DNA of 64,000 nt, taken from the NCBI GenBank assembly GCA_049323895.1, contig JBMOKT010000008.1:250243-314242 (forward strand), given 5' to 3'. The notes below the pieces were generated by a model. That model was not told the origin of the DNA and ran no database searches. It saw only the letters and a list, made by a program, of their open reading frames with translations. Positions within the stretch are counted from its first letter, which is position 1, and each line of letters opens with the position of its first letter. A program made the translations under genes and the position numbers. This document shows positions 591-57,041 of this stretch, piece after piece. This DNA comes from Bacillota bacterium (GTDB taxonomy: Bacteria > Bacillota > Peptococcia > Peptococcales > BICA1-8).

Positions 591-850
591 ATATAGTGGC
601 TAGTGGCTAGTAAGGGTAGGTGCTGATGACTGGTGACTGGTAGTTTGAGAGTGTGATAGTTTGAGAGTGTGATAGTAAAGAACGTTACTTATAAATGTTC
701 GAGTTTTCTAGACGTGACCATAGTGTCATTGTGTATGACATCGTAACACTGAAACAAGAATTCATAGGCGTCACAATGACATGACTATTCTTCATAAAAA
801 ATTAGCCTACACAGGTATGCCAACTATACTGTAGCTACTTCTATTTAGTT
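591..850 (+). repeat. mosaic short-tandem-word island A. Module order: (GGCTAGT)x2, (GTGACTG)x2, (AGTTTGAGAGTGTGAT)x2, GTAAAGAACGT, CGTGAC/GTGTCAT words, CTGTAGCTACT.
   Basis: Read directly: gtggctagtggctagt 596-611; gatgactggtgactggt 625-641; a 16-bp unit repeated at 642-673; gacgtgacc..gtgtcat..gacatcgt..gtcacaatgacatgac 710-790; ctgtagctact ~829-839. It fills the space between the pyrB SD and the second PyrR terminator. Confidence 0.8.
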
Positions 851-869
851 TGTCTTAAAACTGCTAATA

Positions 870-1017
870 TATAAAAAGCCGGGTCAAAAGACCCGGCAGG
901 ATGTTAATAGTTTAGGGGAGTTCAAAGTGAATTTAGTGCTAAATTGCTAGCCACTAGCCACTAAGAACTAGCCACGCTTATTTCTTCCTTGCCGACCTCA
1001 CAGGACCGTTTTAAAGG
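870..1017 (-). promoter_or_regulatory. PyrR-binding transcription attenuator, copy 2 (pyrB-proximal)
   Basis: Minus-strand RNA carries the PyrR loop GGUCCUGUGAGGUCGGCAAGG (comp. 987-1007), then the intrinsic terminator GCCGGGUC-UUUU-GACCCGGC plus a U-run (comp. 873-897). GGUCGGCAAGGA can alternatively pair with UCCUGCCGGGUC as an antiterminator. Confidence 0.8.
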
Positions 1018-1035
1018 ATATCCAATTTAAAGTTA

Positions 1036-1175
1036 TATAAAAAGCCGGGTCAAAAGACCCGGCAGGATTATCAATATAGTTTAGCAAAGCTCAATGTATT
1101 TAGGGCTAATTACTAGCCACTAAGAACCAGCCACTAACTTTTTCCTTGCCGGCCTCACGGGACCGTTTTAAAGGT
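1036..1175 (-). promoter_or_regulatory. PyrR-binding transcription attenuator, copy 1 (promoter-proximal)
   Basis: PyrR loop GGUCCCGUGAGGCCGGCAAGG (comp. 1144-1164), then an identical terminator (stems comp. 1044-1051 and 1056-1063, U-run comp. 1039-1043). This copy is about 167 bp upstream of copy 2. Confidence 0.8.
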
Positions 1176-1195
1176 TCTGCATATTTGTTTTCTCT

Positions 1196-1249
1196 ATTAT
1201 AACCTTTGGTGATATGGTTGACAAGCACATTTTTCTAGGGTAATAATAT
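1196..1249. promoter_or_regulatory. back-to-back sigma-A-like promoters for the pyr leader (minus) and the HAD gene (plus)
   Basis: Minus strand: TTGTCA (comp. 1219-1224), 17 nt, TATAAT (comp. 1196-1201). Plus strand: TTGACA 1218-1223, 17 nt, TAATAA 1241-1246. The two -35 boxes overlap in a palindrome. Confidence 0.5.
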
Positions 1250-1319
1250 TTGGGGACATACTATTCGTAGTATATATTTGGGGGCAATCTCAACCCATTA
1301 GCAAAAAAGGAGCATTGTT

Positions 1320-1955
1320 ATGAATATTAAAGGAATCTTATTTGACTTGGATGGTACATTAATCAATACCAATGATTTAATTGTGGAAACCTTTCAATAC
1401 ACCTATAAGAAAATCTTAGACTTGGATGTTTGCAGGGATGATATTACCTGCCGTTTCGGTGAACCACTTGTAGACACCTTAGCCCAATATTGTCCGGAGA
1501 AGGTTGATTTACTCCTTAAGACTTACCGGGACTACAACTTTGCTAAGCATGATGATTTAACTACTATATTCCCCGGGAGCAAAGAAACTGTTATTGAGCT
1601 TAAAAAACGGGGATACAGTTTGGCGGTAGTAACTTCTAAAAAAAATATAGGTGCACATCAGGGATTAAACCTTTTTGGACTCACCCCATACATAGACTGT
1701 TTTATAGGTTATGACGATACAACAAGCCATAAGCCCAACCCCGAGCCTGCCTTAAAAGCTTTGGAAGGACTAAGGATTGCACCCCAAGAGGCACTAATGG
1801 TAGGAGACAGTCCTTATGACATTCTTTGCGGGAAAAATGCCGGAACTTATACGGCGGTAGTTAAGTATACTGAACACTCCCTTGAGAAACTCATGGAACT
1901 GAAGCCCGATTATGTATTAAATGAATTAGGGGATTTGTTGAGTATTCTAAAATAA
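1320..1955 (+). CDS. HAD-IA family phosphatase (PpaX / phosphoglycolate-phosphatase-like)
   Basis: HAD motif I FDLDGTLINT, motif II VTSK, and motifs III/IV K..GDSPYDI. AAGGAG SD at 1307-1312. Confidence 0.75.
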   Translation: MNIKGILFDLDGTLINTNDLIVETFQYTYKKILDLDVCRDDITCRFGEPLVDTLAQYCPEKVDLLLKTYRDYNFAKHDDLTTIFPGSKETVIELKKRGYSLAVVTSKKNIGAHQGLNLFGLTPYIDCFIGYDDTTSHKPNPEPALKALEGLRIAPQEALMVGDSPYDILCGKNAGTYTAVVKYTEHSLEKLMELKPDYVLNELGDLLSILK

Positions 1956-1983
1956 TAGGTTGGTATAAATTCAGCCCTCGAAT

Positions 1984-3084
1984 TCAGCCCAGTCTATCCT
2001 TAATTAAAGTATTAAGTATTTCCACTCCATGGTTAAGGGCTTCAAGATTAAAGCTCATATCCTGGTGGTGCAGTCCAGGTTCCAGATCAGCTCCCAAACC
2101 GATATAGGCAGTCTTTATTTTCCCTTGTCGGGCATAGAAATGAAAATCCTCGCCACCGGGAGTTAATACAGGTCCCAGAGATTTGCCCAATACCTGTTGA
2201 ATAGCTTTTTGTGCATTTTCTACTAGCTCATGATGGTAATCAGCACCGGGGACTCCTCCCAAGATTTCTACCTCGGCCTCTGCACCTATGCTAGCCGCAC
2301 CATTTTGGACGGCATTTACGGTCTTTTCAATCAGAAGTTCCATAAGCTGGTTGCTTTGGGCCCTTAAATCAAAGACCAAGTGGGCAGTATCGGGAATTAT
2401 ATTAAATGCCTCCCCTCCCGCTGCCAGCTTTGTAGTTTTTATTGAGTGAGGGACTACGGGATTAACCCTAATGGCATTGATAGCGTGTACTATGTTTGCG
2501 GCAGCATCAATTACGTTTATCCCCAAATGGGGACGGGCTCCATGGGCTGCTTTCCCCTTTATTTGTGCCTTTATTACATAAGCAGAACCATGGCATAAGG
2601 CAGGGGTTGCCTCCCCCAGCTTAGCCTCCTGGATAGGGCGCAAATGTATGCCATACATTTCCTCTACATCATCTACAAAACCACTGTTCAGTATTAATTT
2701 AGCCCCCTGGAGAGTTTCCTCAGCAGGTTGAAAAACAATTTTTAAGCTCCCCCTGCCGATTCCTCTTTGAGCAGCTTCCAAAGCTGCCATTAAGACCATG
2801 GTACAGTTTGCATCATGACCACAGGCATGTATAACTTTAAGGTTCCCGTCAATTGTGAAGGGAAGAGCATCCATATCAGCCCGCAAGGCAACTACCGGTC
2901 CCGGCTCCTCCCCTTTAAAAACTCCTACAACTCCTGTGGAGTTGCCTGCATTCCTATACACCTTGAAACCCTTCTCTTCCAACGATTGAGCCAAATAGTT
3001 AGCAGTTTCCTTTTCCTCCATACCTAACTCAGGCATGGAATGGAGTTTCTCATATACTTTAATTATTTCCTCCAACCCTATCAC
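1984..3084 (-). CDS. M20-family amidohydrolase / aminoacylase
   Basis: 366 aa with the HACGHD metal-binding block and the QPAEE catalytic block typical of M20D amidohydrolases. Confidence 0.7.
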   Translation of the reverse strand: MIGLEEIIKVYEKLHSMPELGMEEKETANYLAQSLEEKGFKVYRNAGNSTGVVGVFKGEEPGPVVALRADMDALPFTIDGNLKVIHACGHDANCTMVLMAALEAAQRGIGRGSLKIVFQPAEETLQGAKLILNSGFVDDVEEMYGIHLRPIQEAKLGEATPALCHGSAYVIKAQIKGKAAHGARPHLGINVIDAAANIVHAINAIRVNPVVPHSIKTTKLAAGGEAFNIIPDTAHLVFDLRAQSNQLMELLIEKTVNAVQNGAASIGAEAEVEILGGVPGADYHHELVENAQKAIQQVLGKSLGPVLTPGGEDFHFYARQGKIKTAYIGLGADLEPGLHHQDMSFNLEALNHGVEILNTLIKDRLG

Positions 3085-3145
3085 CTGTTTCTAAAATATA
3101 CTTGTATAAGTATAACAACAAATAAAAATATAGTTCAACCCTTTT

Positions 3146-4759
3146 TTATAAGGTAGTATGGGGTGGAATAGGAGCGGAAACTTTAACATCTATAAGGGAA
3201 GGCTTATTGGAAGCAAAAGCCTCTTTTAAAACATTATCCAGTTGGACTGCTTCAGTTACTTGATAGCCTTCCCAACCACAGCCTTGGGCAACTAATTTAA
3301 AATCGGGGTTATAAAGATTTGTACCGGTTTGACTGATACCGGCAACAATCATTCTGTTTCTTTCCATGGAAAGGGAACTGTTATTAAAGACGACTGTCTT
3401 AACATTAATTCCCCGTTCCACGGCTGTCACCATTTCACCCATGGACATGGTCAAGCCCCCGTCACCTACCAGTGCAATAACCTGGCGCTCAGGAAACTCC
3501 AGCTTAGCAGCCAAAGCAGCCGGCAGCCCAAAGCCCATACTCCTCCATGAACCCGAAATCAAAGGAATTTGCTGCTGACCTTGAAAAACCTTATCAAACC
3601 ATAACACATGCTCGCCAACATCAAGGGCAATTACTGCATCTGCAGCCGCGTTTCCTTCAACAGAAGAAACAAGCCTCTGGGGTAGAATGGGGTTAACATC
3701 TGAATTAACCTCTTGCTCCAGATCATTAATCCATTTTTCCCGAACTGTTTTAACTTTTTCTACCCACCTGCGATTCGGCTTTCCTTCAAACATATCACGA
3801 AGAATAGATAATGACTTTTCAATACAACCCTCTATACCAACACTGATTTTATCTTGAAGCCCTAAATTCTCTAATATGCCATCCAATTGTATAATGGAAA
3901 TCTTCTTTGGTACAAACCTTTCAGGCCACCAGGTTGAACCAATGGTCAACAGACAGTCGGCTTCTTCTAGTAACATAGATGCGCCATTGCTTCCAGCTAA
4001 TCCTAGACCGCCCACCAAATAATTAAAATCCCTGGAAATAATCCCTTTAGCCGGCAAAGAGTAGGTTATGGCAGCACCTAATTGTTCTGACCATTTTTCT
4101 ATCATTTGTCCTTTGCCCCGGGCTCCCCTGCCTATTAAAAACATAGGTTTTTTCGCCTGCCGTAAAAGCTGAACCGCCCTTTGCAAGCCCTGTTCATCAG
4201 GCATTTTGTGTGCGGCAAAAATGGAATCTTGAGGACGGGGCTCCTGGGTACAGGGCTTAGTAAAAATATCCTTTGGCACTGCTATGTGAGAGACAGTACC
4301 TTGAACCATGGAGGTTTGCAAAGCCCTATAAATTAACTCCACCGTAGGTTGGGGATCGGTCAAAAGGGCTGAATACTTAGCTAATGGCTGGATTAATATC
4401 TTTTCATCTATATATTGTTTATAACCTGTTCCAATGTATTTTGTCGGTACTTGGCCCGTAATGGCAATTACAGGAACTTTGTCAGAATAGGCATCTCCTA
4501 GACCGTTAATTAAATTAGCGGTTCCGGGACCTGAGGTCGCTGTACATACAGCAACCCTCCCTGTTAGCTTTGCTTCAGCTGATGCCATAAAGGCCGCAGC
4601 ACTTTCGTGCCTTGCTTGTACATATTCTATTTGGGGATGCCTGTTAATAGCGTCTAAAAATGTTAAAATGGCATCACCAGCATAACCGTAAATTCTTTTC
4701 ACCCCCCACGAAGCTAACTGGTCTAAAATTGCATCGGCTACTGTTCTTTTAACTGGCAT
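3146..4759 (-). CDS. thiamine-pyrophosphate-dependent enzyme (acetolactate synthase / pyruvate oxidase superfamily)
   Basis: 537 aa. N-terminal TPP-pyrimidine domain (ILDQLASWGVKRIYGYAGDAIL) and the C-terminal GDGG..(24)..NN TPP-binding motif (LVGDGGLTMSMGEM...VVFNNSS). Confidence 0.75.
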   Translation of the reverse strand: MPVKRTVADAILDQLASWGVKRIYGYAGDAILTFLDAINRHPQIEYVQARHESAAAFMASAEAKLTGRVAVCTATSGPGTANLINGLGDAYSDKVPVIAITGQVPTKYIGTGYKQYIDEKILIQPLAKYSALLTDPQPTVELIYRALQTSMVQGTVSHIAVPKDIFTKPCTQEPRPQDSIFAAHKMPDEQGLQRAVQLLRQAKKPMFLIGRGARGKGQMIEKWSEQLGAAITYSLPAKGIISRDFNYLVGGLGLAGSNGASMLLEEADCLLTIGSTWWPERFVPKKISIIQLDGILENLGLQDKISVGIEGCIEKSLSILRDMFEGKPNRRWVEKVKTVREKWINDLEQEVNSDVNPILPQRLVSSVEGNAAADAVIALDVGEHVLWFDKVFQGQQQIPLISGSWRSMGFGLPAALAAKLEFPERQVIALVGDGGLTMSMGEMVTAVERGINVKTVVFNNSSLSMERNRMIVAGISQTGTNLYNPDFKLVAQGCGWEGYQVTEAVQLDNVLKEAFASNKPSLIDVKVSAPIPPHTTL

Positions 4760-4820
4760 GTTTAACCCTCCTTTTTATAGCTATAGATTTAGAAAAAAAA
4801 TAAGTAATTATACACTTCAA

Positions 4821-4853
4821 TAATTAAAGGTGCGGCATGGAAACCGCACCCTA
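4821..4853 (-). terminator. probable intrinsic terminator after ATPase paralogue 1
   Basis: Minus strand GGGTGCGG-TTTCCAT-GCCGCACC followed by TTTAATTATT. Confidence 0.5.
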
Positions 4854-4939
4854 CATATTGGCTAATGGTCAATAGCTTGATAGCAATGAAAAACCTTAAT
4901 CTAGCGTCAGCGAAATCTTTAATGTCTATTAAATAATCT

Positions 4940-5018
4940 TGCAGCGGCAAAATCTTTAGTCCGAGATCGCTTCGTGCCTCTATGACAATTTCATTGTAAC
5001 ACTCGCCCACTATCTTAT
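4940..5018 (-). repeat. mosaic-vocabulary island Y. It starts at the ATPase TAG stop and shares a 37-38 nt block with 33430-33467.
   Basis: Minus strand reads TAG-ATAAGATAGTGGGCGAGTG..AATGAAATTGTCATAGAGGCACGAAGCGATCTCGGAC. The block at 4959-4995 is the reverse complement of 33430-33467, apart from a CG/A difference (one indel, one substitution) and a C/G substitution. Confidence 0.6.
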
Positions 5019-7889: not shown

Positions 7890-8012
7890 AAAAAATAAAG
7901 ACCTTTACCAATATTGGTAAAGGTCTCGCAAGCAACAGTTACGTTGACAATAAAGCCGGGGCTTAAAAACCCGTTCTGACGACTTTACTGTAGAAGCTAC
8001 TCCCCTTTAACA
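7890..8012 (-). promoter_or_regulatory. yybP-ykoY (Mn2+) riboswitch with expression-platform terminator
   Basis: Minus strand: AAAGGGGAGUAGC..AAAGUCGUCA..CCGGCUUUAUUGUCAACGU..UUGCGAGACCUUUACC (aptamer comp. 7916-8012). This matches the conserved cores of the family as I recall the L. lactis yoaB element. The 3' P1 strand is also the 5' arm of the terminator AGACCUUUACC-AAUAUU-GGUAAAGGUCU plus a U-run (comp. 7890-7926). Confidence 0.9.
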
Positions 8013-8131
8013 TATTACATTATTTTACATCTATATTTTACATTAAACATTTGAAACAAGCAAGGCAGTTTTTTAAAAACTGTTCAAGGAACTTTATTAA
8101 TATACCTTTCGTCTATTATTAAATATACTAA

Positions 8132-10596: not shown

Positions 10597-10607
10597 CATC
10601 CCCAGGC

Positions 10608-10865
10608 AAAGGTAAGCTATTAGGTCATTCTGCATGACAGGTAAAGGTTGAGAAAAAAATTAGTAGGGAACAACCCCAGTGTCGTTCCGTAAACTCTTGG
10701 CATCTGCTTAAGAGATAGTTTTTAGGGATGCATCTTGCAGTATAACTTATGAGCAGATGCATCCCTGTAAATTGCCTTTCATCGGATGCTAGCAGCTTTA
10801 GGTTAACCCTAACCTCAACCTTTACCTTTACCTGTCATACTGAATTGCTCCAAAGCTTACCTGAC
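10608..10865. repeat. MITE-like mosaic island H with ~23-bp terminal inverted repeats and an internal 12-bp hairpin
   Basis: The left arm tctgcatgacaggtaaaggttgag (10630-10653) is the reverse complement of the right arm ctcaaccttta(ccttta)cctgtcat (10814-10838). Outer words aaaggtaagct (10608-10618) and agcttacct (10854-10862). Internal agggatgcatct..agatgcatccct. The left end aaaggtaagctattaggt is identical to 56709-56726. Confidence 0.7.
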
Positions 10866-10881
10866 CCATAGTATATCCCAT

Positions 10882-10919
10882 GAGCTTAAATCAGGTCACT
10901 TGTGACCTGATTTAAGCTC
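10882..10919 (-). terminator. stem-loop overlapping the stop codon of the ABC-2 permease gene
   Basis: gagcttaaatcaggtcac-ttgt-gacctgatttaagctc forms a long perfect stem. There is no clear U-tract, so a terminator role is uncertain. Confidence 0.4.
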
Positions 10920-11916: not shown

Positions 11917-11928
11917 TTTCCTTCCCCC

Positions 11929-21958: not shown

Positions 21959-22019
<61 letters not shown>

Positions 22020-22057
22020 AATTGTAACAGAAAAGCAAAGCAGTCAATGCCAGAATT

Positions 22058-35825: not shown

Positions 35826-35875
35826 GTAGGACGGCAGGATTGGGCAGGATGGCAGGATGGGTAGGATGGGCTTAT
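35826..35875 (+). repeat. degenerate tandem GGCAGGAT(G/T) repeat
   Basis: ggcaggattgggcaggatggcaggatgggtaggatggg, directly after the T-box terminator. Confidence 0.8.
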
Positions 35876-37091: not shown

Positions 37092-37238
37092 AACAACACC
37101 TCTAATTGGATACGGGCAGAATTTATTTAGCACCGTTTTATTTGGTGATTATATAAATTCTAGGCAGTCCTTAAATATCCTTTTAAAAGAAATCTTTTAT
37201 GTTATACTTTAGATACATAAAGGTAAGGAGGTATTGCC

Positions 37239-37598: not shown

Positions 37599-37692
37599 TT
37601 TTCTAACCACTGACCCATATGGGCACACAGATGCACACGGTTTTGAGTAAGTGTCCATCCGTGTGTGATAGTCACCTGCTACGTGATTTACA

Positions 37693-40853: not shown

Positions 40854-40993
40854 TGTTATTTACACTCCTTTAATTATGTATTACTAAATAGCATTCCTGG
40901 AGGCAGCCTGGCAATCTTAGCATATAACCTTAGACCCTAGGCTTTGCGTCCTGCCCTTTCGAACAGTTTGCCCTTATTGTAAATAATTGATTT

Positions 40994-47949: not shown

Positions 47950-48000
47950 ATCTTGCATCTCCCTTCTTTTCGATGTTACGTCTAGTAAGCTAGTCTTCAT

Positions 48001-48267
48001 GATAATACACTTTAAGTGGCTACAATTGTTATAGTGCTACAGTGCTACCGAAAAATACTAAAAGGTTATTTACTATGAAAGCTGCACATTCATGGTCACA
48101 CTTTCTTTTACTATCACACTATCAAACTATCAAACTATCGCACTCACAAACTACCAGCACTAGCCACTAGCCACTAACAACTAGCCACTGTTTTTTACCA
48201 GTCACCAGTCACCAGTCACCAGTCACCAGTCACCAGTCACCAGTCACCAGTCACCAGTCACCAGTCA
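48001..48267 (-). repeat. mosaic island D between addA and sbcD, inverted orientation, ending in (CCAGTCA)x10
   Basis: gtgctacagtgctacc 48034-48049; ctatcacactatcaaactatcaaactatcgcactcacaaactacc 48111-48155; cactagccactagccactaacaactagccactg 48158-48190; a perfect 70-nt heptamer array at 48198-48267 abutting the addA TAG stop. Confidence 0.9.
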
Positions 48268-51200
48268 CTATAATTGTATCGCTTTACCTAGACTAAACAA
48301 ATACAAATATCTTTCTTTAACCTTTTCCTTAGTTATAGTCTCTACAGCTCTGGTATAAAGGTTTATTTGCCCGGAGTACCTATCGATAAACCCTGAGAGG
48401 TCTTCATCCTTTATTTGGTCACTTTTATAATCAATTAAAACCCAGCCTCCATCCTCATACCACATGCAGTCAATTACCCCTTGCAGTAATACTTTATCAG
48501 AGGTATCGGTCCCAATATCATCATAAATCTCCTGAACATCCAAGGTTAAACTGAAGGGAATTTCCCTTTCTGCCCTTTGGGCCCTTTTAAGTCTTTCCCC
48601 TAGAGAACTCTCAAAAAAGAGCAGGATATTTTCCTGGGGGATTGACTCTTTTTGTTCTGGAGTTAGTAACTCCCTGCTTAATAAATCCTCCAGAAACATC
48701 TCCAGGTATTGCCCGGTGATTTTCTGATGTAATGGAATATGCTGCATCACACAATGGATAGCAGAGCCTTTTTCTACAGCTGTCAAAGCCTTCTTCTTTT
48801 GAAGAAATACGGGGCGCCTTCTAAATCCTTGAAAAATCCTGTTTTCTTGTAAATCAAGCTGCACTTCCTGAAATTTATGCTTAATCTCGGTAACACTAAC
48901 TTTAGCCCCTTTGGTGCTTACCCCGGGAAAGGGGTATGTCCACTCCAGCTTTTCTGCAACCTGTCTATAAAGCTGGGGATCAATCTGTACCTGCTGTAAA
49001 TCCTTAATGCTTTCCAGCATTTCCCTGGTTGCTGCAACCTGCTCATCTTCCTGGACGTTTAATTCTTCTTGCAGAACGGCAATTTCCCACGCAGATTCAT
49101 CTTCCAGCAGGGAAATTGCCTGCTGTGGGACGAATCTACGCAAGGGGATGCCATCCCTGTGCCTGGTTAACGCAGGTCCAAGCCAATCCAAAAAGCTGTC
49201 GGCCTGGGCAAGGAAGCTGTCGGGAATTTTAACAGAGGGAATGTCTAAAAATTGAGCCCAGTCCTCAATTTGTTTCTGTACCTTTCTTACAGTACCAATC
49301 ATTATCAACTTTTCCCTGGCTCTGGTCATAGCTACGTAAAGTATGCGCATTTCTTCCGCCAAGGTCTCTAGCTTAACCTTAATATCTATGGCAAGTTTAG
49401 CAATTGTTGGATATTTAATCCTCTTCTCAGGATCGATAAAAACAGGTCCAAGACCTAAATCCTTATGCAGAGTAATATCTTGCCTGGTATCCAGCATGTT
49501 AAACTTTTTGCCCAGCCCGGCAATAATTACAACGGGAAATTCCAAGCCCTTGCTTTTATGGATACTCATAATACGGACGACGTTTTCGTTTTCACTAAGG
49601 GCTTTAGCCGCCTCTAAATCACTTTTATTTTCCTCCATTCTTTGCAGGAAACGGAGAAACATAAACAGCCCCTTGAAACTGGTTGTTTCAAATTGCCTGG
49701 CCCTGTCGTGGAGGGCCCGCAGGTTTGCCTGCCGCTGGCTTCCCCCGGCCATTGCACCTACATAATCGAAATAACCCGTTTCCCGATACAAAGTCCAAAT
49801 AAGGTTTGCCAGTTCATTCTGACGGGCCAGGGTTCTCCAGTTTTCCAGCCGGGACAGGAATCCTCCCAATTTTTCGGCTAATTGGTCCTTTGTTTTCTCG
49901 ACTGTTTGTAATATAGCCTGGTAAAAATCACCTTGAGGACAATGAAGTCGGATATTTGCCATCTCCTGGGAACTTAATCCCACTAGAGGCGAGCGAAGCA
50001 CCCCAGCCAAAGGGATATCCTGCCGGGGATTATCTATAATCTTTAATAAGGAAAGCATAATCTGTACTTCCGTAGCTTTAAAATATCCCCTTCCCAGTTC
50101 TCCATAAACAGGAATTCCCAGTAAACGGAACCTTTCCAGAAAGGTCTCTGCAGAACCTTTAGGTGAGCGTAGAAGGATAACAATATCTGAATAGGTAATG
50201 GTCCGATAGTCGTTTGTTTTTTTATCAAACACAAGACAATTCTGCTCTATTAGTTCCTTAATCCGATTACCTATTATAACCGCTTCCCGTTCTACGGAAG
50301 TCAGTTGCTCTGCCTCTTCCATATCTTTTTCTACTAAATAAAATTCTACCGGACCTGCCAAACCAGCTTGCCCTTGACATTCTGGGTAAACTACGCCGCA
50401 TCTGAGGCGAGCCTCCTGGTTATATTCTATCTCCCCTAAATCCTTGCCCATTAATTGCTGAAAAACAAAGTTTACTCCATCCACAATCTCCTTGCGGCAG
50501 CGGAAATTACTAGCTAAATCTATCCGCCGGTCTGCATATCCTTCCTTGTTTGCAAAGCGGTAATATTTTTCCTGGAAAAGTTCAGGCCTTGCCAGACGGA
50601 AGCGGTAAATACTCTGCTTCACATCACCCACCATAAAAAGATTATCAGGACGGGAAACAAGCTGTAATATGGTTTCTTGAACGTCATTAATATCCTGGTA
50701 CTCATCAACTAAGACTTGGGAGTACTTTTCCTGGAGCTTCATGCTGACGGCAGAAGGTATTATCTGTTCAGGAGTTGAATTTGTTGCCATTAACAGTTGG
50801 AGACAGTAATGCTCTAAGTCATTGAAATCCATAATGTTTCGCCGTATCTTGGCCTTGGCATACTCTTCCTTAAACTCCATAACTAAGCGTCCGAGAAGCT
50901 CCAAATAAGGTTGTACAATTACTAAATCATTAATAAAGTCCTGGGGTAAACGATGAAAATATTTATTCTGCAGTCCTTTCAATATATCTTTGGCCTTATC
51001 TCTAAAGTATTTTACCTTTTCCTGCAGCTCCGGATTACTTTCTTCTTTTTTTGCCCTAGGCAGCCTGCCAAAGGCCGCAGTGGATGCCGCATCGTAGGCT
51101 TCCTTCCAGGAAAGGGATGCTGCATTTAATATATCTTCCAAGAGATAAATTTCCTCTTGAAGTGTAGCAATATAAGCGGCAGGTCCTCCCGGTGCCCCTG

Positions 51201-51891
51201 CCAGCCTAAATGCCTGCACCAGCATTTCCCGGGCAGTACTGAATTCCATTTTAATGCTTGGCAATAGGTATTGAAACCATTCCGAGCCAGTAAAACCAGT
51301 AATTACCTCTTCCAGCCATTTTTGCGGCCAGGGATTGCTTTGGGCAAAGGAAAACAGTTTGATTATCAAGTTCTGTATCAAGACATCATCCTGTGAACCT
51401 CCGTAGGCATCTATCAATTTGCTAAAACCGTCGCCGTCGACGCAGTTTGTGTAGTATTTTTCCAGGATTTCCTCCAATACATCCAGCCGTAAAAGTTCTG
51501 CCTCCGTCTCGTCAGCAATTCGGAAGTGGGGGTCTATGCCTAGAATATAGAAATTCTCCTTCACCACCTCCATGCAAAAGGAATGGAGTGTCATAATTGA
51601 TGCTTTATTAAGCAGGGTACTCTGCCGGTACAAATGACGGGAAAGGGGGTTTCTTTTTGCCGCTTGTGCCAGTGCTGCACCTATTCTCTCCTTCATCTCT
51701 GCGGCAGCGGCATTAGTAAAGGTTACCACCAAGAGGGCATCCACATCAACAGGAGCCTTTTCATCACAAATCAGTTTGATAATCCGTTCTACCAATACAG
51801 CAGTTTTTCCCGAGCCTGCTGCTGCTGCCACTAAAAGGTTGCAGTTGCGAGTATATATTGCCTGTTCCTGTTCCCTTGTCCAGGTGGTCAT
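48268..51891 (-). CDS. addA: ATP-dependent helicase/nuclease AddA
   Basis: 1207 aa. UvrD-type helicase (AAAGSGKT..) with a C-terminal RecB-family nuclease (GVIDCMW..LIDYKSD). AAGGAG SD. Confidence 0.95.
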   Translation of the reverse strand: MTTWTREQEQAIYTRNCNLLVAAAAGSGKTAVLVERIIKLICDEKAPVDVDALLVVTFTNAAAAEMKERIGAALAQAAKRNPLSRHLYRQSTLLNKASIMTLHSFCMEVVKENFYILGIDPHFRIADETEAELLRLDVLEEILEKYYTNCVDGDGFSKLIDAYGGSQDDVLIQNLIIKLFSFAQSNPWPQKWLEEVITGFTGSEWFQYLLPSIKMEFSTAREMLVQAFRLAGAPGGPAAYIATLQEEIYLLEDILNAASLSWKEAYDAASTAAFGRLPRAKKEESNPELQEKVKYFRDKAKDILKGLQNKYFHRLPQDFINDLVIVQPYLELLGRLVMEFKEEYAKAKIRRNIMDFNDLEHYCLQLLMATNSTPEQIIPSAVSMKLQEKYSQVLVDEYQDINDVQETILQLVSRPDNLFMVGDVKQSIYRFRLARPELFQEKYYRFANKEGYADRRIDLASNFRCRKEIVDGVNFVFQQLMGKDLGEIEYNQEARLRCGVVYPECQGQAGLAGPVEFYLVEKDMEEAEQLTSVEREAVIIGNRIKELIEQNCLVFDKKTNDYRTITYSDIVILLRSPKGSAETFLERFRLLGIPVYGELGRGYFKATEVQIMLSLLKIIDNPRQDIPLAGVLRSPLVGLSSQEMANIRLHCPQGDFYQAILQTVEKTKDQLAEKLGGFLSRLENWRTLARQNELANLIWTLYRETGYFDYVGAMAGGSQRQANLRALHDRARQFETTSFKGLFMFLRFLQRMEENKSDLEAAKALSENENVVRIMSIHKSKGLEFPVVIIAGLGKKFNMLDTRQDITLHKDLGLGPVFIDPEKRIKYPTIAKLAIDIKVKLETLAEEMRILYVAMTRAREKLIMIGTVRKVQKQIEDWAQFLDIPSVKIPDSFLAQADSFLDWLGPALTRHRDGIPLRRFVPQQAISLLEDESAWEIAVLQEELNVQEDEQVAATREMLESIKDLQQVQIDPQLYRQVAEKLEWTYPFPGVSTKGAKVSVTEIKHKFQEVQLDLQENRIFQGFRRRPVFLQKKKALTAVEKGSAIHCVMQHIPLHQKITGQYLEMFLEDLLSRELLTPEQKESIPQENILLFFESSLGERLKRAQRAEREIPFSLTLDVQEIYDDIGTDTSDKVLLQGVIDCMWYEDGGWVLIDYKSDQIKDEDLSGFIDRYSGQINLYTRAVETITKEKVKERYLYLFSLGKAIQL

Positions 51892-52180
51892 GGTAACAAC
51901 TCCTTATTCGTCGTGTCGTCTACTCATCTTTTCGTCTTTTCGTCTAGTGGTCATCTCGTGTTGGTCTAAAGTATTAGGTCTGTATGACGACTAATGGTTT
52001 TCATTATTGGTCGGTATTTCGGCTAAAGGGATTTACTGAATGTCAACATTTTTAACCCTGTCTCGCGAATGAGCTTGCGATTGAACAAAAGGATGTTATT
52101 CGGTGACACGGTTTTTTAGCCAACTAGCCACTGACTGATTTTTCTAGTCAGCAACAAGCTCCAAGTCACTAGTCACTACT
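51892..52180 (-). repeat. mosaic island E between addB and addA
   Basis: TCGTC-rich words (cgtcgtgtcgtct, ttttcgtcttttcgtct) at 51909-51946; agccaactagccactgactg 52128-52147; agtcactagtcactact 52164-52180, overlapping the last codons and the TAG stop of addB. Confidence 0.8.
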
Positions 52181-55100
52181 TAACAATTCCCAGACTTGCT
52201 CATTACTTAATGGCTTAATAGTACGGAAGCAGTTGTTTTCTACCTGCCGGTCAAACTGGCAGACAATCAAAAAGGAACAGTAACTGCAAGCTTGAAAACC
52301 CTTAAACTCATAGGGCGAAATACTCACATCCCCCTTTAGTACAGCTTCTCCCGCCTTTTTCATGATTCCCCTGACATGATTTCGTAAAGCCTCTATCTGT
52401 TCAGTATTTACCGCTTTAGAATTCTTATAAAATTGTCCATCCTTATTGATGGCTGCAGGAATAATAGGTGACCAACCGTCCTTGGTTTCTCCATCCATAA
52501 GTTGAAAAACCTCCTGATCTGCCACCAGCAGCCCCTCCATTTTTAGTTCCTTGAGGATGTTTTTTTCCAGTTCATCCTCGGAAATTGGACCTGTCAAAGA
52601 CAGCATAGGATCCTTTAGAAAAAAATATAATATACCGGCAGGCAGCGCTTCTTTGGTCTGCAGCAGCTGGTCGGCATAAGTAAGGACAATGTCCAAATAG
52701 GTTAACAGTTGAAGCTTTAAGCCATAATAGACCTCCATAATACCTAATCCCGCATTGCCCGACTTATAATCTATTACCCTTAGGAAATACTTTCCTTCCT
52801 TGCAGGCTGCATCCACCCGGTCAATTCTTCCTACTAACTCCATTTCCGTTCCATCTTCCAGGGTTATCTTTAAAGCAGGCAAAGAACCTTGGGGTCCAAA
52901 AGCTGCTTCTAAAGCCACAGGTCTGAATTTGCCCCTGCGGGCATGCTCAGCCAAGATGAGAGCAGCTCTTTGGATTGTCTTTTTAAACCTCTTAGTGAGG
53001 TATTTGTATTTTGCCGAGCTTAAAAGAATTTCCCCCTGTACCTGGGGAATCAGCTCTTCAGCAATATTGTCACAAAGGATTATAATGGCTTTTTTATCTA
53101 ATTGAGTCCAATCCAAGTTCTCAACTTCAAGTTTATTAGCTAAGGATTCTAAGGCCTTGTGGTAAAAACGTCCTAAATCAGGCTGGGAAAGTTTAAAAAT
53201 TTCCCTTTCCCGCAAGCCCAGTCCATAAGTACTGAAATGGGAAAAAGGGCAGGCTTGGAATTTTTCTAAACGGGATACGCTGACCCTTAAGGGGTTGCCG
53301 AACAAACCTCTAGCAGTAAGGGAATCAATTGGTAGGGCCTGATTGGTATGAAACAGACCCTCAACAACCCTTTGCAAACCTAATTTGCCTTGTTGATTTT
53401 GCAAAAGCCATTGGTAGATATTCCACCAAACTGGCTCAACAGGTTGTCCCTCCCTAGCCTGACGCAGTTGTATCCCTAAACCCGATAAAGCCTTTTGGGG
53501 ATGGTTTATAAACTCCGGCTCCATCCAGGATAAAGTTTCACATAGCTTAGGGAAAATATCCTTGATCCTTCTAATGATTGAAGAAGGTCTTAATGCCCTG
53601 CCTTCACTATCGGCCAGGGGATAGCTTAGAACTAAATAGTGGCTGGCCCGGGTCAGGGCCATATAGACTAAAAACTCCTCTGTAAAGACCTTTTCCTTAT
53701 TTCCCGGTGCCAGTTCCAGCCCAATATCCTTTAAATAATCCCGCTCAAAATCATTAAATATTCCTTCCGAACCAGGTCTGGCAGGGAAAATCCCTTCCAA
53801 GACACCTAAAATAAATACACCCTTTAAATTAGGATTTCTTGAACGCTCTAATGAACCAACAACCACCTGGTCCAGACCGGGAGGTATTAAACCTAACTTC
53901 AGACTTTGCAGTCCCGTATCAATAATCTTTATAAAGCTATCCAGATTAAAGGGCTGTGCACCCATGGTTTCTGAGATTTGGTCAAGAATATCCATGATGC
54001 CATCCCAGATTTGGTTGTGTTCCCCTGCTGACACCAGCCGTCCCTGCTCTCCTGCCTCTAGTGAGCAATTCTCCAATTTACGTGAGACATCCAATTCAAC
54101 CAATAAATTATATATGGCTGCAACAGCATCAACATTACATTGGCATTGGCGGATTGCAACTGTAAAAGAATGAAGTTCCTTAATACCCCTCCGGCGAATA
54201 CTATTTATATTACCATTGTCTTTGCATTTCCAATCTTTATGGTGGTGCCACCTTTTACCTCTAATACCATAGGCTAATATATAGTTCTCCAATATATCAG
54301 CATCAGCCCGGCTGATATTAGTCAGGTCCGTTTTGAAATAGCGGGACACAGCCTGATAGGACCAATCTTCCATTACTGCCTCTAAGGCTGACCTGAGCAA
54401 CTCAACTAAGGGATGATGCATAACCGTTCTTTTCCTGTCAATAAAAAAGGGAATTTCGTAATCGGAAAAAATAGTCTCTATCAATAGATCATAATTGTTA
54501 AAGTCTCTTAGGAGTAATGCAATATCCTTATACCGCCAGCCTTCATCCCGGCATAGCCTTCTAATTTCCCCCGCTACCGACTCAACTTCCTCCCGCTGGT
54601 TTTGGGAACTGATAATCCTGATGTTTCTTACTTCTTCATCGAAGGGTTGGGCGGCAGGTGCAAAAAAATTCTCTTCTAAATAACTAAGGTCGCGTTGTTG
54701 GGCAAAACGGTATGGTTTCTCATTAACCGCTAAAACATATGGTTTTTCAATTGGGACGCTGCTTTTCAAGGCAGCATCTGTCAATCTGTCAAAGGTTTTG
54801 TTTGTCTCCTGAAAGATATTTCTTTTGTCCAGGGTCAATAAAACATTGACCCTTTTAGCAGTTTGCAGCAGCACCTTAATTACACTTATTTCCTGGGGAG
54901 TAAAGCCAAAAAAACCATCCAGCCAGATTTCTGAATTAATTATAGTGGGAGATGAATGGGCTTTGACACCTAAAAGGCTTAAGGAATCATCGGGATCAAT
55001 AAATTTATCAGCAAGATAATTTTCCAAATCGGAATATATCAGTTCCAATTCCCGCAGCTTGGATAATAAAAGAGAGTCTTCCTGGCTTTTTGCCTGCAAA

Positions 55101-55528
55101 ACATTGTTTAAATCCTGATTACTGATTTGGTATAGCTTGAATTCAGAAATGGCTGAAGATACGCTATCTATAAAGCCGGGGAAGTCACCGGCTTTGTTGA
55201 AAATTTGCAACTGGTCTTTACGATTTTCTATAAATTGACGAATAACCATATGCTTGCCCAGGTCACTAATATGTACCTTATTGCCTCCGCCTGTTTCCTG
55301 AAACACCCGCCAGGCTAAACGGCGAAAGCTTAAAACCTGTGTACCTATAATACCTTGGAGTTGGGGATGGGAAGCCAGCGCTAATTCGTATTGGAAGGTA
55401 GCCTGTTCAGGAACCAACAAAATATGGGGTTTGTTAAGGGGCGACGATAATAGGTCTTCCTTTATATAATTTAGACAGTATGTAGTTTTTCCTGAGCCTG
55501 CAGGTCCCAAAATGAATCGCAAAGTCAT
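52169..55528 (-). CDS. addB: ATP-dependent helicase/nuclease AddB
   Basis: 1119 aa. Walker A GPAGSGKT, a C-terminal nuclease (GRIDRVD..VIDYKSG) and Fe-S cysteines (CPFSHF.. CSYCSFLIVC). Confidence 0.95.
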   Translation of the reverse strand: MTLRFILGPAGSGKTTYCLNYIKEDLLSSPLNKPHILLVPEQATFQYELALASHPQLQGIIGTQVLSFRRLAWRVFQETGGGNKVHISDLGKHMVIRQFIENRKDQLQIFNKAGDFPGFIDSVSSAISEFKLYQISNQDLNNVLQAKSQEDSLLLSKLRELELIYSDLENYLADKFIDPDDSLSLLGVKAHSSPTIINSEIWLDGFFGFTPQEISVIKVLLQTAKRVNVLLTLDKRNIFQETNKTFDRLTDAALKSSVPIEKPYVLAVNEKPYRFAQQRDLSYLEENFFAPAAQPFDEEVRNIRIISSQNQREEVESVAGEIRRLCRDEGWRYKDIALLLRDFNNYDLLIETIFSDYEIPFFIDRKRTVMHHPLVELLRSALEAVMEDWSYQAVSRYFKTDLTNISRADADILENYILAYGIRGKRWHHHKDWKCKDNGNINSIRRRGIKELHSFTVAIRQCQCNVDAVAAIYNLLVELDVSRKLENCSLEAGEQGRLVSAGEHNQIWDGIMDILDQISETMGAQPFNLDSFIKIIDTGLQSLKLGLIPPGLDQVVVGSLERSRNPNLKGVFILGVLEGIFPARPGSEGIFNDFERDYLKDIGLELAPGNKEKVFTEEFLVYMALTRASHYLVLSYPLADSEGRALRPSSIIRRIKDIFPKLCETLSWMEPEFINHPQKALSGLGIQLRQAREGQPVEPVWWNIYQWLLQNQQGKLGLQRVVEGLFHTNQALPIDSLTARGLFGNPLRVSVSRLEKFQACPFSHFSTYGLGLREREIFKLSQPDLGRFYHKALESLANKLEVENLDWTQLDKKAIIILCDNIAEELIPQVQGEILLSSAKYKYLTKRFKKTIQRAALILAEHARRGKFRPVALEAAFGPQGSLPALKITLEDGTEMELVGRIDRVDAACKEGKYFLRVIDYKSGNAGLGIMEVYYGLKLQLLTYLDIVLTYADQLLQTKEALPAGILYFFLKDPMLSLTGPISEDELEKNILKELKMEGLLVADQEVFQLMDGETKDGWSPIIPAAINKDGQFYKNSKAVNTEQIEALRNHVRGIMKKAGEAVLKGDVSISPYEFKGFQACSYCSFLIVCQFDRQVENNCFRTIKPLSNEQVWELLSSD

Positions 55529-55845
55529 ATTTACACCGGCTTTCGTTAAGTAGTTACTGGTGACTGGTATAAAAGTGTGAAATTATAAAAGTGTGATAGT
55601 GTGACAGTAAAAGAACGTGCGGATATAAACGTCTAGCTTACAGGACGTGTCACGATGAATGGCAATTTTCCGGGATGTGCTGCCGGGTCACCGATTGACA
55701 GTCTTTTGTTCTTGACTCTCTTACTTTTTCACTTTTACACTCTTTGAAATTCTTACTTTTCAGTAGCACTGTAGCACAGACACGCTGTATATCATATAAG
55801 CTTTCACACGGACAAGCAGTATTTACGTAATAGCTTACCTTTACA
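55529..55845 (+). repeat. mosaic island F in the addB/ecsC divergent region
   Basis: actggtgactggt; aaaagtgtgatagtgtgacagtaaaagaacgtg; gtctagcttacaggacgtgt 55631-55650; core gatgaatggcaattttccgggatgtg 55654-55679; ctcttactttttcacttttacactctttg; cagtagcactgtagcac; tagcttacctttac ~55830-55844. Confidence 0.8.
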
Positions 55846-55985
55846 ATAAACCGGTTTGACGGTTTAATGTTATATTTCTACCCAAAGAACATATGTTCCT
55901 GCAACTATTATTAAAGAATTTTCGTATACTATAAAAGTAATAAACAAAGGTTGACATGGCTTCAAGAAGGAAGGAAATAAATTTT

Positions 55986-56705
55986 ATGGAATATGAGGTA
56001 AGGGTCAAAAAAGAATTGGCTGCCTGGGAAAAAAAAATCTTATGCAGGACCGGAATCTTGGAACAAATGTCAAGAGGTATGCAGAAGAAGATTGATTCCT
56101 TTATCCCCCCTAAGATACACAAGACAATAAGCAAAACTATGGAAGTAACCATCAAATCAATACTGGCGGGAATCAACCTTATCCCTGTTGATGAAAAAAA
56201 GCTGCGTATCGCCCAGAATCTTAGTTTGGCGGAGGTGGATTGTGAAGTAGATAAAATCATAAAAAACTACAAGAAGGTTGCAGCGGCAACTGGAGCCGGA
56301 ACCGGCTGGGGAGGTTTACTGGGCCTGGCAGTGGATTATCCTGCATTAATTTCTCTGGAATTGAAAATGCTGCAGGAAATTGCCCTAGCCCACGGTTATG
56401 ATATAAACTTAAAACCAGAAAGAACCTACCTGCTTAAGGTCTTCATTTTGGCTTTTTCCGCAGACTCCTGCAGAAAAAGAACCTATTTGGAATTGCTAAA
56501 CTTCCAGAACCAAAGGGAAATAGACTGGCAGCAACTGTACCATGAATATAAGGAACGGGTAGAATTTAAAAAAATGCTCCAGATTATCCCCGGATTTGGA
56601 GCTGTCGTAGGAGCCTGGGCAAACTATGGACTAATAACCGAGTTAGGAGAGACTGCCCGCAACGCATATCGGCTACGATACTTCAAACGGCAAGAGCTAC
56701 GCTAA
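55986..56705 (+). CDS. EcsC-family protein
   Basis: Start at MEYEVRVKKELAAWEKK.. The family pattern (..GAGTGWGG..A..D.PAL) matches EcsC/PF12787 as I recall it. Confidence 0.6.
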   Translation: MEYEVRVKKELAAWEKKILCRTGILEQMSRGMQKKIDSFIPPKIHKTISKTMEVTIKSILAGINLIPVDEKKLRIAQNLSLAEVDCEVDKIIKNYKKVAAATGAGTGWGGLLGLAVDYPALISLELKMLQEIALAHGYDINLKPERTYLLKVFILAFSADSCRKRTYLELLNFQNQREIDWQQLYHEYKERVEFKKMLQIIPGFGAVVGAWANYGLITELGETARNAYRLRYFKRQELR

Positions 56706-57041
56706 GGTAAAGGTAAGCTATTAGGTTAATTTTTCCGTCAGGAAAAGATACACTTTGGGGCTAAATATTCCGTCAGGTATAGAAAAACACCAGTTTGATA
56801 GTGTGATAGTTTGAAAGTTTGATAGTATAATACGTGTCACAATGATTGTCTAGCTTATAGGACGTGACATCGTGTCGCCGTGACATCGAATATCAGCACC
56901 CAATAGTTCTGGGGCTACTGTAGCTACTGTATTTATTTTACCTTTACCTGTCCCAAAAAATATACCCGGAAGCTTACCTCTACCTGTCATGCAGAGTCGC
57001 TTTATAGCTTACCTGACATGCAGTATACCTCCATAGCTCAA
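56706..57041 (+). repeat. mosaic island G between the convergent ecsC and rnhA genes, with GGTAAAGGTAAGCT / AGCTTACCT.TACC inverted termini
   Basis: aaaggtaagctattaggt 56709-56726 (identical to 10608-10625); ttccgtcagg x2; gtttgatagtgtgatagtttgaaagtttgatagt; gtctagcttataggacgtg 56848-56866; cgtgacatcgtgtcgccgtgacatcg; ctactgtagctactgt; agcttacctctacctgtcatgcag 56971-56994; agcttacctgacatgcag 57006-57023. Confidence 0.85.

Follow-up and report, generated by a model that had tools for sequence, protein, structure and literature searches.

The window analysed here is a stretch of 64,000 nucleotides (nt) of contig JBMOKT010000008.1 (positions 250,243 to 314,242, forward strand) in the Bacillota bacterium assembly GCA_049323895.1. 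Its overall GC content is about 40%, and the minus strand carries most of the genes, including a DNA-repair operon of addB, addA, sbcD and sbcC. In the gaps of this operon lie intergenic islands built from short tandem words; similar islands lie beside other genes, which include pyrB, ppaX, trhA, rnhA, an ecsC-like gene and a gene for a split-Soret cytochrome. The islands occupy 5' untranslated regions (UTRs) of pyrB and addB, intercistronic spacers, 3' UTRs on both sides of a terminator at 22060-22084, and the space between the terminators of convergent genes. Here we show that the islands share an ordered series of modules around a conserved core and that they have entered an operon that is almost free of spacers in outgroups. 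They may be copies of a selfish, non-coding repeat family, a reading that we favour while judging its chances to be about even.

An earlier note, made from the sequence alone, had listed twelve such stretches and described them as almost entirely made of one vocabulary of words. The words stand where that note placed them and are confined to intergenic DNA, and eight of the twelve stretches are solid members of one family (Table 1; each is named below by its first position, and the two parts of 21959-22201 are listed separately). Two more, 4940-5018 and 33380-33500, are degenerate relatives. The last two fall outside the family: the stretch 35826-35875 consists of a private (GGCAGGATG)n repeat that follows a T-box leader, and 37600-37690 holds only one or two words. 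Exact 12-mers shared with another listed island cover 25-53% of the bases in nine of the twelve stretches, namely seven solid islands and the two relatives (29% in 591, 53% in 48001). The figure falls to 10% in 51892, the weakest of the eight, and to 0% in the two stretches that we excluded. Of 13 control intergenic regions of at least 100 nt, 12 share no island 12-mers and one shares 2%; in coding chunks the share is 0.6%. Intergenic DNA amounts to 8.7 kb in the window, and the eight solid islands together account for about 2.1 kb of it, or roughly one quarter. 'Almost entirely' was nevertheless too strong, as exact 10-mers that are shared or internally repeated account for 45-65% of the best islands. 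Sharing was measured with 10- and 12-mers because 8-mer coverage and a 9-mer matrix were uninformative, the k-mer space being saturated.

Counts of individual words also separate intergenic from coding DNA. The word CTAGCCAC occurs 18 times in four intergenic regions and never in coding DNA, which is 6.3 times larger. The 8-mers CTATCACA and ACTGTAGC are found in seven and five intergenic regions, respectively, and have no coding copies. Two words were also compared with dinucleotide shuffles and are commoner than expected: CTGTAGCTACT was observed four times with 0 expected, and GGTAAAGGTAA four times with 0.06 expected. When intergenic regions were compared with each other by blastn, 48026-48189 aligned to 757-595 (170 nt, 69%) and 56792-56876 aligned to 642-727.

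What do the islands have in common beyond their words? A module map and an alignment of seven copies give the following order from the outside in: arrays of the heptamer GTGRCTR; AGTKTGAKAG words, with the 8-nt form AGTKTGAK; GTAAAAGA; the core, ACGTGTCAYGATGAATGGCAATTTNCCGGGATGTG; then GTGACATCG words, CTCTTTCACT words, CTGTAGCTA words and arms of AGCTTACCTTTACC and ACCTGTCATGCAG. The CTCTTTCACT words approximately mirror the AGTKTGAKAG module, and with CTGTAGCTA and AGCTTACCTTTACC/ACCTGTCATGCAG they form a C-rich mirror half. The heptamers had been listed as separate words; they are present as listed, but all of them (GTGGCTA, GTGACTG and GTGACTA) belong to the one family GTGRCTR. The common order of modules holds, in one orientation in islands 591, 28917, 55529 and 56705 and in the other in 48001 and the half island 22092-22201. 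Tandem arrays of the heptamer lie at 594-641, 21959-22018, 28918-28947 and 48158-48268.

The core is non-repetitive and about 45 nt long. The seven aligned copies, five from the window and the others from two further genomes, run colinearly through it and outside the words, so that the islands align beyond low-complexity matches. Five window sites and the two other genomes have in common both the core and at least eight modules in colinear order. Midway along complete islands the G-C skew passes from positive to negative; in island 591 it is +0.55 in the left half and -0.11 in the right. Complete copies have inverted arms, 39 nt long in 10605, 30 nt in 56705 and 18 nt, perfectly matched, in the related locus L003 described below. 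Half copies lack these arms, and the ends of the element are frayed arrays. There are hairpins of the GGGATGCATC...GATGCATCCC type and a GTAGCTAC word, and no palindromic unit common to all copies was found.

Table 1. Islands, degenerate relatives and neighbouring features, with positions in the window
Feature	Position	Strand	Setting	Contents
pyrB 5' UTR island	591-850	+	between attenuator terminator (878-897) and pyrB ribosome-binding site	GTGGCTA 594-611; GTGACTG 619-641; (GTGTGATAGTTTGAGA)2 641-676; GTAAAGAACGT; CTGTAGCTAC 829-838; degenerate GTGAC/GTCAC core region ~705-790
CTAGCCA words, 3-4 units	944-975	-	central part of PyrR-like attenuator 1 (871-1021, minus)	
CTAGCCA/CCAGCCA words	1110-1136	-	in PyrR-like attenuator 2 (1037-1178, minus)	
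Degenerate relative	4940-5018	-		hairpin module of 33380-33500 at 4960-4981 (minus); CTCGCCCA word
Complete foldback copy	10605-10890		between convergent genes; right tail homologous to 56974-57041	outer arms 10610-10648 / 10824-10862, 39 nt, 79% complementary, with GGTAAAGGTAAGCT and CTGCATGACAGGT words; inner hairpin GGGATGCATC...GATGCATCCC 10719-10771; core 10760-10783(-)
(AGTGGCT)8.6 array (first part of 21959-22201)	21959-22018	+	begins 8 nt past stop of 21558-21950; upstream of bidirectional terminator 22060-22084	
Half island (second part of 21959-22201)	22092-22201	-	3' UTR of 22202-24073(-)	minus-strand order: AGTKTGAKAG words, GTAAAAGACGTG, core (22139-22162), GTGACATCG x2, GGTAAAGGTAAG
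Island	28917-29077	+	flanked by terminators of two convergent genes	(GTGACTR)4, GATAGTTTGA, (ACTCTTTC)3, (CTGTAGCTA)2
Degenerate relative	33380-33500	+		decayed heptamers GTTGCTG GTTACTG GCGACTG; hairpin module ATTGTCAT-CGGAGGCACGAAGCGATCTCCGA 33445-33466
addA-sbcD island	48001-48267	-	intercistronic	mRNA-strand order: (GTGACTG)10, GTGGCTA x3-4, AGTKTGAKAG x4, GTAAAAGAAAGTGTGACCATGAATG, (GTAGCACT)2, sbcD start
addB-addA island	51892-52180	-	intercistronic	mRNA-strand order: TAGTGAC units holding addB stop, then GTGGCTAG, then unique sequence; TAGACGA/AAGACGA words (51907-51945) immediately before addA ribosome-binding site
addB 5' UTR island	55529-55850	+	in mRNA, downstream of promoter and LexA box 55887-55898	GTGACTG, AGTGTGAKAG words, GTAAAAGAACGTG, GTCTAGCTTACAGGACGTG (55631-55649), core (55654-55677, +); after core CTTTTTCACT words, GTAGCACT x2, AGCTTACCTTTAC (55832-55845)
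Full-length copy	56705-57041	+	between convergent ecsC-like and rnhA genes	30-nt arms 56705-56734 / 56956-56985; GGTAAAGGTAAGCT arm 56706-56719; AGTTTGAT words 56792-56826; GTCTAGCTTATAGGACGTG 56848-56866; GTGACATCG x2; (CTGTAGCTA)2 56914-56931, AGCTTACC/ACCTGTCATGCAG arms 56935-57023
sbcC	43115-46720	-	repair operon	
sbcD	46717-48000	-	repair operon	
addA	48268-51891	-	repair operon	
addB	52169-55528	-	repair operon	
yybP-ykoY-like leader	7930-8017	-	followed by terminator 7898-7927	
T-box leader	35544-35794	+	followed by (GGCAGGATG)n repeat 35826-35875	
c-di-GMP-I riboswitch	40899-40982	-	upstream of cheX-like gene, chemotaxis cluster	
Homologue of 7930-8017 leader	~61290-61400	-		

Some copies are strongly structured. 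Fold z-scores for 10600-10870 are -11 and -8 on the two RNA strands and -5.7 for the DNA, and the centre of L003 scores -5.6/-5.0. The core itself has no conserved RNA structure; its consensus fold reaches only -1.56 kcal/mol with no meaningful covariation, and a structured-RNA reading of the core was dropped on these grounds. The core can also be read as the start of an open reading frame (ORF), M-(N/K)-G-N-(F/L)-(P/Q)-G-C, in which three of the four variable positions are third codon positions (55651-55680(+), 22165-22136(-), 10786-10757(-), L003 ~3833 and L004 ~3119). These frames are 11-57 amino acids (aa) long. We judge such a micro-ORF unlikely and the core probably not coding: the sample is very small, the copies disagree in downstream frame and length, and they occur in both orientations relative to the host genes.

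The islands intrude on real genes. The addA stop codon UAG (48268-48270) belongs to the GTGACTG array of island 48001, and in island 51892 the addB stop codon TAG (52169-52171) and the last two AddB codons are array sequence. No intrinsic terminators were predicted inside the operon islands, and this candidate role was dropped.

We compared the window with related genomes, the next relatives of its AddA protein being 62-66% identical. A scan for the core pattern, with one genome per species, found locus L003 (Peptococcaceae bacterium BICA1-8) and locus L004 (Clostridiaceae bacterium BRH_c20a); AddA homologues led to the syntenic loci L005 (GCA_049366715.1), L006 (JGI 3300001682) and L007 (GCA_012720075.1). 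In L003 an island again lies between addA and sbcD, and in L004 one lies between two other genes. L005-L007 carry islands in the same three gaps as the window. Between addB and addA the gap measures 277 nt in the window, against 226, 300 and 349 nt in L005-L007; between addA and sbcD it measures 267 nt in the window, against 117-455 nt in L005-L007 and about 440 nt in L003. Islands fill every one of these gaps. In the outgroup Peptococcaceae bacterium 1198_IL3148 (L008), by contrast, the operon gaps are 3 and 17 nt, and in Desulforamulus reducens addB overlaps addA. Because the outgroup operons are almost free of spacers, the islands are clade-specific insertions into an ancestrally compact operon.

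At orthologous sites the vocabularies differ in part. Locus L005 uses TTGAGAA, GAACTGA and ACTATAA; L006 uses AGTGGAAC, CTAGTCA and CTCGCCCA, the last a word that it shares with the degenerate relative 4940-5018. In L007 an 8-nt palindrome, GATGCATC, occurs in 14 copies against 0.34 expected, all of them intergenic and spaced about 30-45 nt apart. Tandem repeats of period 5-20 make up 8-17% of the intergenic DNA in the window and L005-L007; L003 and L004, both short, have 42% and 4%. The share is about 1.5-2% in coding DNA and 1.5% in the intergenic DNA of D. reducens. On the loci compared, the phenomenon belongs to a whole clade, with partly different vocabularies.

The islands also turn over quickly. 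In the addB 5' UTR, the promoter and LexA box are invariant in four genomes, whereas the sequence between them and the ribosome-binding site cannot be aligned across the same four. Within 22 kb, locus L007 has a 180-340-nt element in four copies, of which the two most similar are 88.8% identical over 339 nt, a sign of recent copying. Identity at four-fold degenerate sites has fallen to saturation (0.32-0.35) between the window and each of L003, L005, L006 and L007, yet the core of the window is 85% identical to that of L004 over 65 nt and 75% identical to that of L003 over 107 nt. The core must therefore be constrained or exchanged horizontally. As a side observation, the sbcC gene of L007 (14100-17708) is called as three ORFs of 165, 406 and 607 aa and not as one of about 1200 aa; it could be a pseudogene, or the split could reflect frameshifts or an assembly error.

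Is the element already known? At the gathering threshold, an Rfam scan of the whole window matched only a T-box, a c-di-GMP-I (cyclic di-GMP) riboswitch and tRNA-Met, with no match on the islands. Down to E = 1 there was none in 55500-57060, which holds islands 55529 and 56705, nor in L007 3400-5010, which holds two element copies, and a scan of 560-1330 around island 591 returned two PyrR-like matches only. A full-text literature search with the word arrays, the core and the hairpin modules found no paper, and plasmid, phage and viral collections contained no match to the composite or to the L007 element. The earlier note's remark that the words belong to no described family thus agrees with all of these searches. 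One Logan contig (L001, run SRR32167787) is 100% identical to window positions 1039-4955 over 3,917 nt. It covers the attenuator words at 1110-1136 and the first bases of 4940-5018, and none of the eight solid islands.

Heptamer repeats as such have a longer history. Those of Cyanobacteria, the short tandemly repeated repetitive (STRR) sequences with units such as CCCCAGT, TTGGTCA and CAACAGT, have been known since 1990, and repeats of this kind are over-represented in many genomes. To our knowledge, the origin and function of bacterial intergenic heptamer repeats are still unexplained. We scanned metagenome contigs with the pattern (GTGRCTR)4 and, among the matches listed, found it in at least 120 contigs with GC contents of 38-73%, from soil, gut and other habitats. 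The heptamer is therefore not special to the genome of the window. The other modules of the window were absent from these contigs by nhmmer and blastn.

The arrays obey a rule of polarity. Counts were made over all data, including the metagenome contigs among the matches listed, for ORFs of at least 150 aa with the stop codon fully outside the array. Within this set, arrays up to 40 nt after a stop codon carry GTGRCTR on the sense strand in 29 cases and on the antisense strand in 4 (p = 1e-5); of the arrays up to 40 nt ahead of a start codon, 15 read YAGYCAC and 3 the reverse (p = 0.0075); and where neighbours differ in orientation, they converge (GTGRCTR ... YAGYCAC) in all 22 cases (p = 5e-7). 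All of the window arrays comply. A general G-C polarity of intergenic edges was also considered and dropped as not significant, so that the polarity is confined to islands and arrays.

For the GGGAATC repeats of Xanthomonas and the GGGGAYT repeats of Nostoc, Rehm et al. 2015 (PMC4692102) had described the same rule, including repeats that overlap stop codons: the G-rich strand is sense in a zone of about 50 nt after the stop and antisense in about 50 nt before the ORF. Two Xanthomonas genomes have 70-75 convergent pairs each, Nostoc has few paired repeats, and most of the repeats are transcribed (PMC4692102). The study also found heptamer simple repeats to be generally over-represented in bacterial intergenic DNA and proposed slippage as the cause. 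TAACTGA repeats, found in Beggiatoaceae, Cyanobacteria and Bacteroidetes, lie just upstream of start codons in Beggiatoaceae, on the sense strand, and are almost never inverted, with one indirect set among 170 (MacGregor 2015, PMC4679880).

Our arrays resemble the STRR, GGGAATC and GGGGAYT class in their tandem 7-nt units (two or more), variable copy number and almost solely intergenic location. They resemble the repeats of PMC4692102 further in polarity, in frequent convergent pairs, and in occupying the same gene gaps in related genomes with varying sequence and length; the earlier note's comparison with cyanobacterial STRR heptamers was apt in this respect. They differ in several ways. The units GTGGCTA, GTGACTG and GTGACTA are distinct from CCCCAGT, TTGGTCA, CAACAGT, GGGAATC, GGGGATT and TAACTGA, and the host belongs to the Bacillota, a phylum not reported in PMC4692102 or PMC4679880. 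The heptamer here is only the outermost module of a colinear element with 8-, 9- and 14-nt words and a core. Finally, nowhere in GTGRCTR do three G stand in a row, which leaves no place for the G-quadruplex explanation here; since the polarity rule holds for such a heptamer, polarity cannot be a G-quadruplex effect.

In the 66% GC contig L048, the DNA between the end of an upstream gene and an ATG at about 3410 consists largely of (GTGACTA)8 and, 12 nt further on, (CAGCCAC)9-10 (3236-3373); the ATG has no sequence resembling a ribosome-binding site ahead of it. Its arms have systematic A:C mismatches on one strand and good G:U pairing on the other: the top-strand RNA, read from the upstream gene, folds at -52 kcal/mol and its complement at -122 kcal/mol. 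Strand-specific folding of inverted array pairs on the sense side was dropped as a general feature, the strand bias being inconsistent.

One set of contigs comes from human-gut Dialister (a protein of L041 is 97% identical to a Dialister protein). The gut contigs L041, L045 and L098 contain islands of the same style that mix GTGACTR, GTGGCTA, GGGATTA, AGGAATG and CTCCTAA heptamers and directly follow stop codons or terminators; mosaics of the Dialister set add a hairpin module. Dialister includes cultured species, and experiments may be possible there.

Very different bacteria have, alongside their heptamer arrays, a second small hairpin module built as GTCAT-stem-CGAAGCGA-stem. Its forms are ATTGTCATCGGAGGCACGAAGCGATCTCCGA in the window, GTCATTGCGAAGGAGCC...GCAATCTCC in L006 (~9760-9800) and GTCATCCCGAGCGNAGCCGAGGGATCTC in the gut contigs L045 (~1225-1255) and L098 (~3400-3430); a full-text literature search found no paper with the L045/L098 form or the window form. 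In the window it sits in the two degenerate relatives. These have in common this module, different from the hairpins of the solid islands, and degenerate heptamers, and the region of 33380-33500 aligns with 4995-4901 over 105 nt at 70%.

Three older groups of repeats offer models for the whole element. The repetitive extragenic palindromic (REP) sequences of Escherichia coli, with the bacterial interspersed mosaic elements (BIMEs) that they form, and the REPINs that go with REP-associated tyrosine transposases (RAYTs), are extragenic mosaics of palindromic units and linker motifs in hundreds of copies. They lie in operon spacers and 3' UTRs, are co-transcribed, form hairpins, and have species-specific sequences, often at conserved positions. 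Their repeated unit is an imperfect palindrome, conserved over 20-40 nt, with a head of the GTAG type. The islands are like them, as the earlier note suggested for BIMEs, in architecture alone: ordered modules, inverted arms and location in operon spacers. Unlike them, they have tandem short words in place of a single 35-40-nt palindromic unit, many copies are unfolded, and the sequences are not similar. The pneumococcal BOX element (boxA-boxB(n)-boxC) and the intergenic mosaic elements of Neisseria have ordered modules and variable internal units and lack a transposase of their own. The islands share with these an intergenic, non-coding nature, ordered modules, a variable number of internal units, a capacity for structure and the lack of their own transposase, but their modules measure 7-16 nt against the 45-59 nt of the boxes, they are mirror-image foldbacks, and both sequence and host clade are unrelated. 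Eukaryotic Foldback transposons have long terminal inverted repeats made of short tandem subrepeats. Like these and like miniature inverted-repeat transposable elements (MITEs), the islands are 150-340 nt long and non-coding, have inverted arms of 18-39 nt in complete copies with tandem subrepeats in the arms, show a fixed chirality of the terminal arrays, and exist as near-identical copies in one genome (L007). Unlike both, many copies are halves or rearranged.

What, then, are the islands? We favour, as an evenly balanced judgement, the view that they are whole, half and nested copies of a selfish, non-coding modular foldback family, similar in kind to REP/BIME or MITE elements and native to a family-level clade of uncultured Bacillota with Peptococcaceae-like genomes. 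The architecture, insertion, turnover, recent copies and polarity described above are shown; the copying route, the slippage and the selective filter are proposed. Copies would spread between intergenic regions in one of two ways: an enzyme acting in trans would handle a hairpin or single-stranded DNA intermediate, or the shared words would seed gene conversion. The word arrays would then grow and shrink by replication slippage. The family would colonise any free intergenic slot, and selection would retain only copies compatible with expression, filtering their orientation relative to translation signals. The G-rich strand, with TGA or TAG in all frames, would be tolerated after stop codons, and the C/A-rich strand, which has no GTG and no mimic of a ribosome-binding site, before ribosome-binding sites. 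In 5' UTRs, 3' UTRs and intercistronic RNA the islands would be passive, though their hairpins may secondarily affect mRNA stability.

Several observations weigh against this account. No target-site duplications are visible at the boundaries of the L007 copies or in the comparison of L006 with L007, there are no sharp termini (arrays fray gradually at their outer ends), and aligning L006 and L007, the closest pair of genomes, yielded no clean pair of filled and empty sites. No RAYT or other transposase is present among the scanned window proteins or the Pfam lists of the related loci, the whole genome not having been searched; the same scans, with the same limit, and the plasmid, phage and viral collections give no related autonomous insertion sequence. 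Folding is no better than in shuffled sequence for 591-860, 55529-55850, the half island 22092-22201 and locus L005. Because GTGRCTR occurs in very distant bacteria without the other modules, the arrays may have an origin independent of the composite. That the core is conserved between genomes with saturated sites could equally well point to a functional binding site, and polarity could arise by selection alone, without a mobile element.

Alternatively, the islands could be selected cis-acting 'punctuation' elements of mRNA. The G/U-rich arm after a stop codon would supply back-up stops in all frames, and the C/A-rich arm would form an unstructured leader free of starts; where both are present, the two arms would pair and loop out the spacer, with effects on mRNA stability or on translational coupling of cistrons, or as a block to exonucleases. 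REP hairpins do block exonucleases in E. coli operons. The strong polarity relative to stops and starts across many taxa, and the mostly transcribed heptamers with the same polarity in PMC4692102, fit this proposal, as do the TAACTGA repeats just upstream of Beggiatoaceae starts (PMC4679880). So do the location of islands in UTRs and operon spacers with no predicted terminators inside, and the folding of 48001-48267 on the sense RNA (z about -4.6 to -4.9) and not on the opposite strand. We nevertheless think the proposal unlikely. Island 28917 lies between the terminators of two convergent genes and is probably little transcribed, making a role in RNA improbable there. Orthologous islands cannot be aligned although the adjoining promoter is invariant, and the outgroups run the same operon without a spacer. 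In inverted array pairs the two strands have folds of about equal strength, in L048 the RNA in the direction of the upstream gene has a much weaker fold than its complement, and several islands are unstructured.

A quite unlikely possibility is that the arrays, the palindrome GATGCATC and the core are DNA-binding sites for a clade-specific protein, whether a nucleoid-associated protein, a regulator or the recombinase of the element, so that the islands would be protein-loading platforms between genes. A core conserved in sequence without conserved RNA structure, while neutral sites are saturated, speaks for such a protein; the excess and spacing of GATGCATC in L007 and the fixed chirality of the arrays, as in transposon ends, point the same way. 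But we identified no protein as a candidate, a period of 7 nt is out of step with the helical repeat of DNA, and the distribution looks opportunistic, with any gap filled and no tie to particular promoters. Vocabularies also differ between sister genomes at orthologous sites, so that a host binding factor would have to co-evolve quickly.

The favoured foldback reading could be carried further. STRR-type arrays in general might be the terminal arms of ancient, widespread foldback mobile elements that are complete and active in this clade, with the core as the recognition site of their enzyme. This enzyme could be hairpin-specific and HUH- or RAYT-like, or could add templated repeats to 3' ends at breaks, and the fixed chirality (GTGRCTR pointing away from the flanking gene, and only convergent pairs) would record the mechanism and not selection. 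We consider this extension decidedly improbable. Least probable of all is that the islands are independent microsatellites formed by slippage in place, with similar words through convergence or composition: intergenic heptamers are over-represented in general and slippage has been proposed (PMC4692102), unit numbers vary widely between islands (2 to 10), and GTGRCTR arrays stand alone in many unrelated bacteria, but the recurrence of the core with its colinear modules, the long near-identical copies of L007 and the virtual lack of shared 12-mers in controls contradict this as a full explanation, which could stand only for the heptamer arrays. The earlier note's suggestion that the islands are copies of a composite element is supported by the colinear modules, by the alignment through the core and by the L007 copies.

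Which parts of this are new? The class is known already, since there are earlier descriptions both of mosaic intergenic repeats and of heptamer arrays with polarity. What is new is an ordered composite with a conserved core, in the Bacillota, whose outer layer consists of heptamer arrays. The rule of polarity was known before; that it holds for a heptamer unable to form G-quadruplexes is new. The old puzzle of heptamer repeats is thereby tied to a longer, ordered element that can be aligned and that expanded a DNA-repair operon with no gaps in outgroups. Two handles follow: the core sequence can serve as bait for a protein that binds or mobilises the element, and the related genomes allow gain, loss and turnover of the repeats to be followed. 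The islands lengthen UTRs and supply stop codons to real genes, and they will confuse gene callers, operon predictors and searches for non-coding RNA in metagenome-assembled genomes.

The promoter of addB contains a perfect Bacillus-type LexA (Cheo) box, GAACATATGTTC, with counterparts at about 5993-6027 in L005, 5859-5893 in L006 and 4551-4609 in L007. From this invariant box, the addBA-sbcCD operon appears to be SOS-regulated in the clade.

Upstream of pyrB, two PyrR-like attenuators in tandem are 80% identical to each other and score 46.6 and 43.2 bits, against an Rfam threshold of 54. The words that the earlier note had placed in PyrR antiterminator loops do lie inside these two attenuators, which themselves fall below the threshold because the heptamer words replace the central hairpin. 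Those of attenuator 1 are complementary (95% over 20 nt) to a stretch 330 nt away, 594-613, which lies just ahead of the ribosome-binding site of pyrB.

Further leaders came to notice as side observations. The T-box leader is full-length (132 bits), but no plus-strand ORF longer than 34 aa follows for about 1.4 kb and the next gene, 36156-37133, is on the opposite strand; the private repeat of 35826-35875 comes after its terminator. The leader is an orphan or decayed T-box. The leader at 7930-8017 resembles the manganese (yybP-ykoY) riboswitch (34.4 bits against 45 in Rfam, E = 6.7e-8), and a second gene also has a homologous leader (71% over 184 nt). Both genes encode P-type ATPases, paralogues with 78% protein identity, and the terminator hairpins use GGTAAAGGTC words, which resemble the arm word GGTAAAGGTAAGCT. 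The leader with the c-di-GMP-I riboswitch, unlike the islands, is conserved with L005 21248-21512 (271 nt, 68%).

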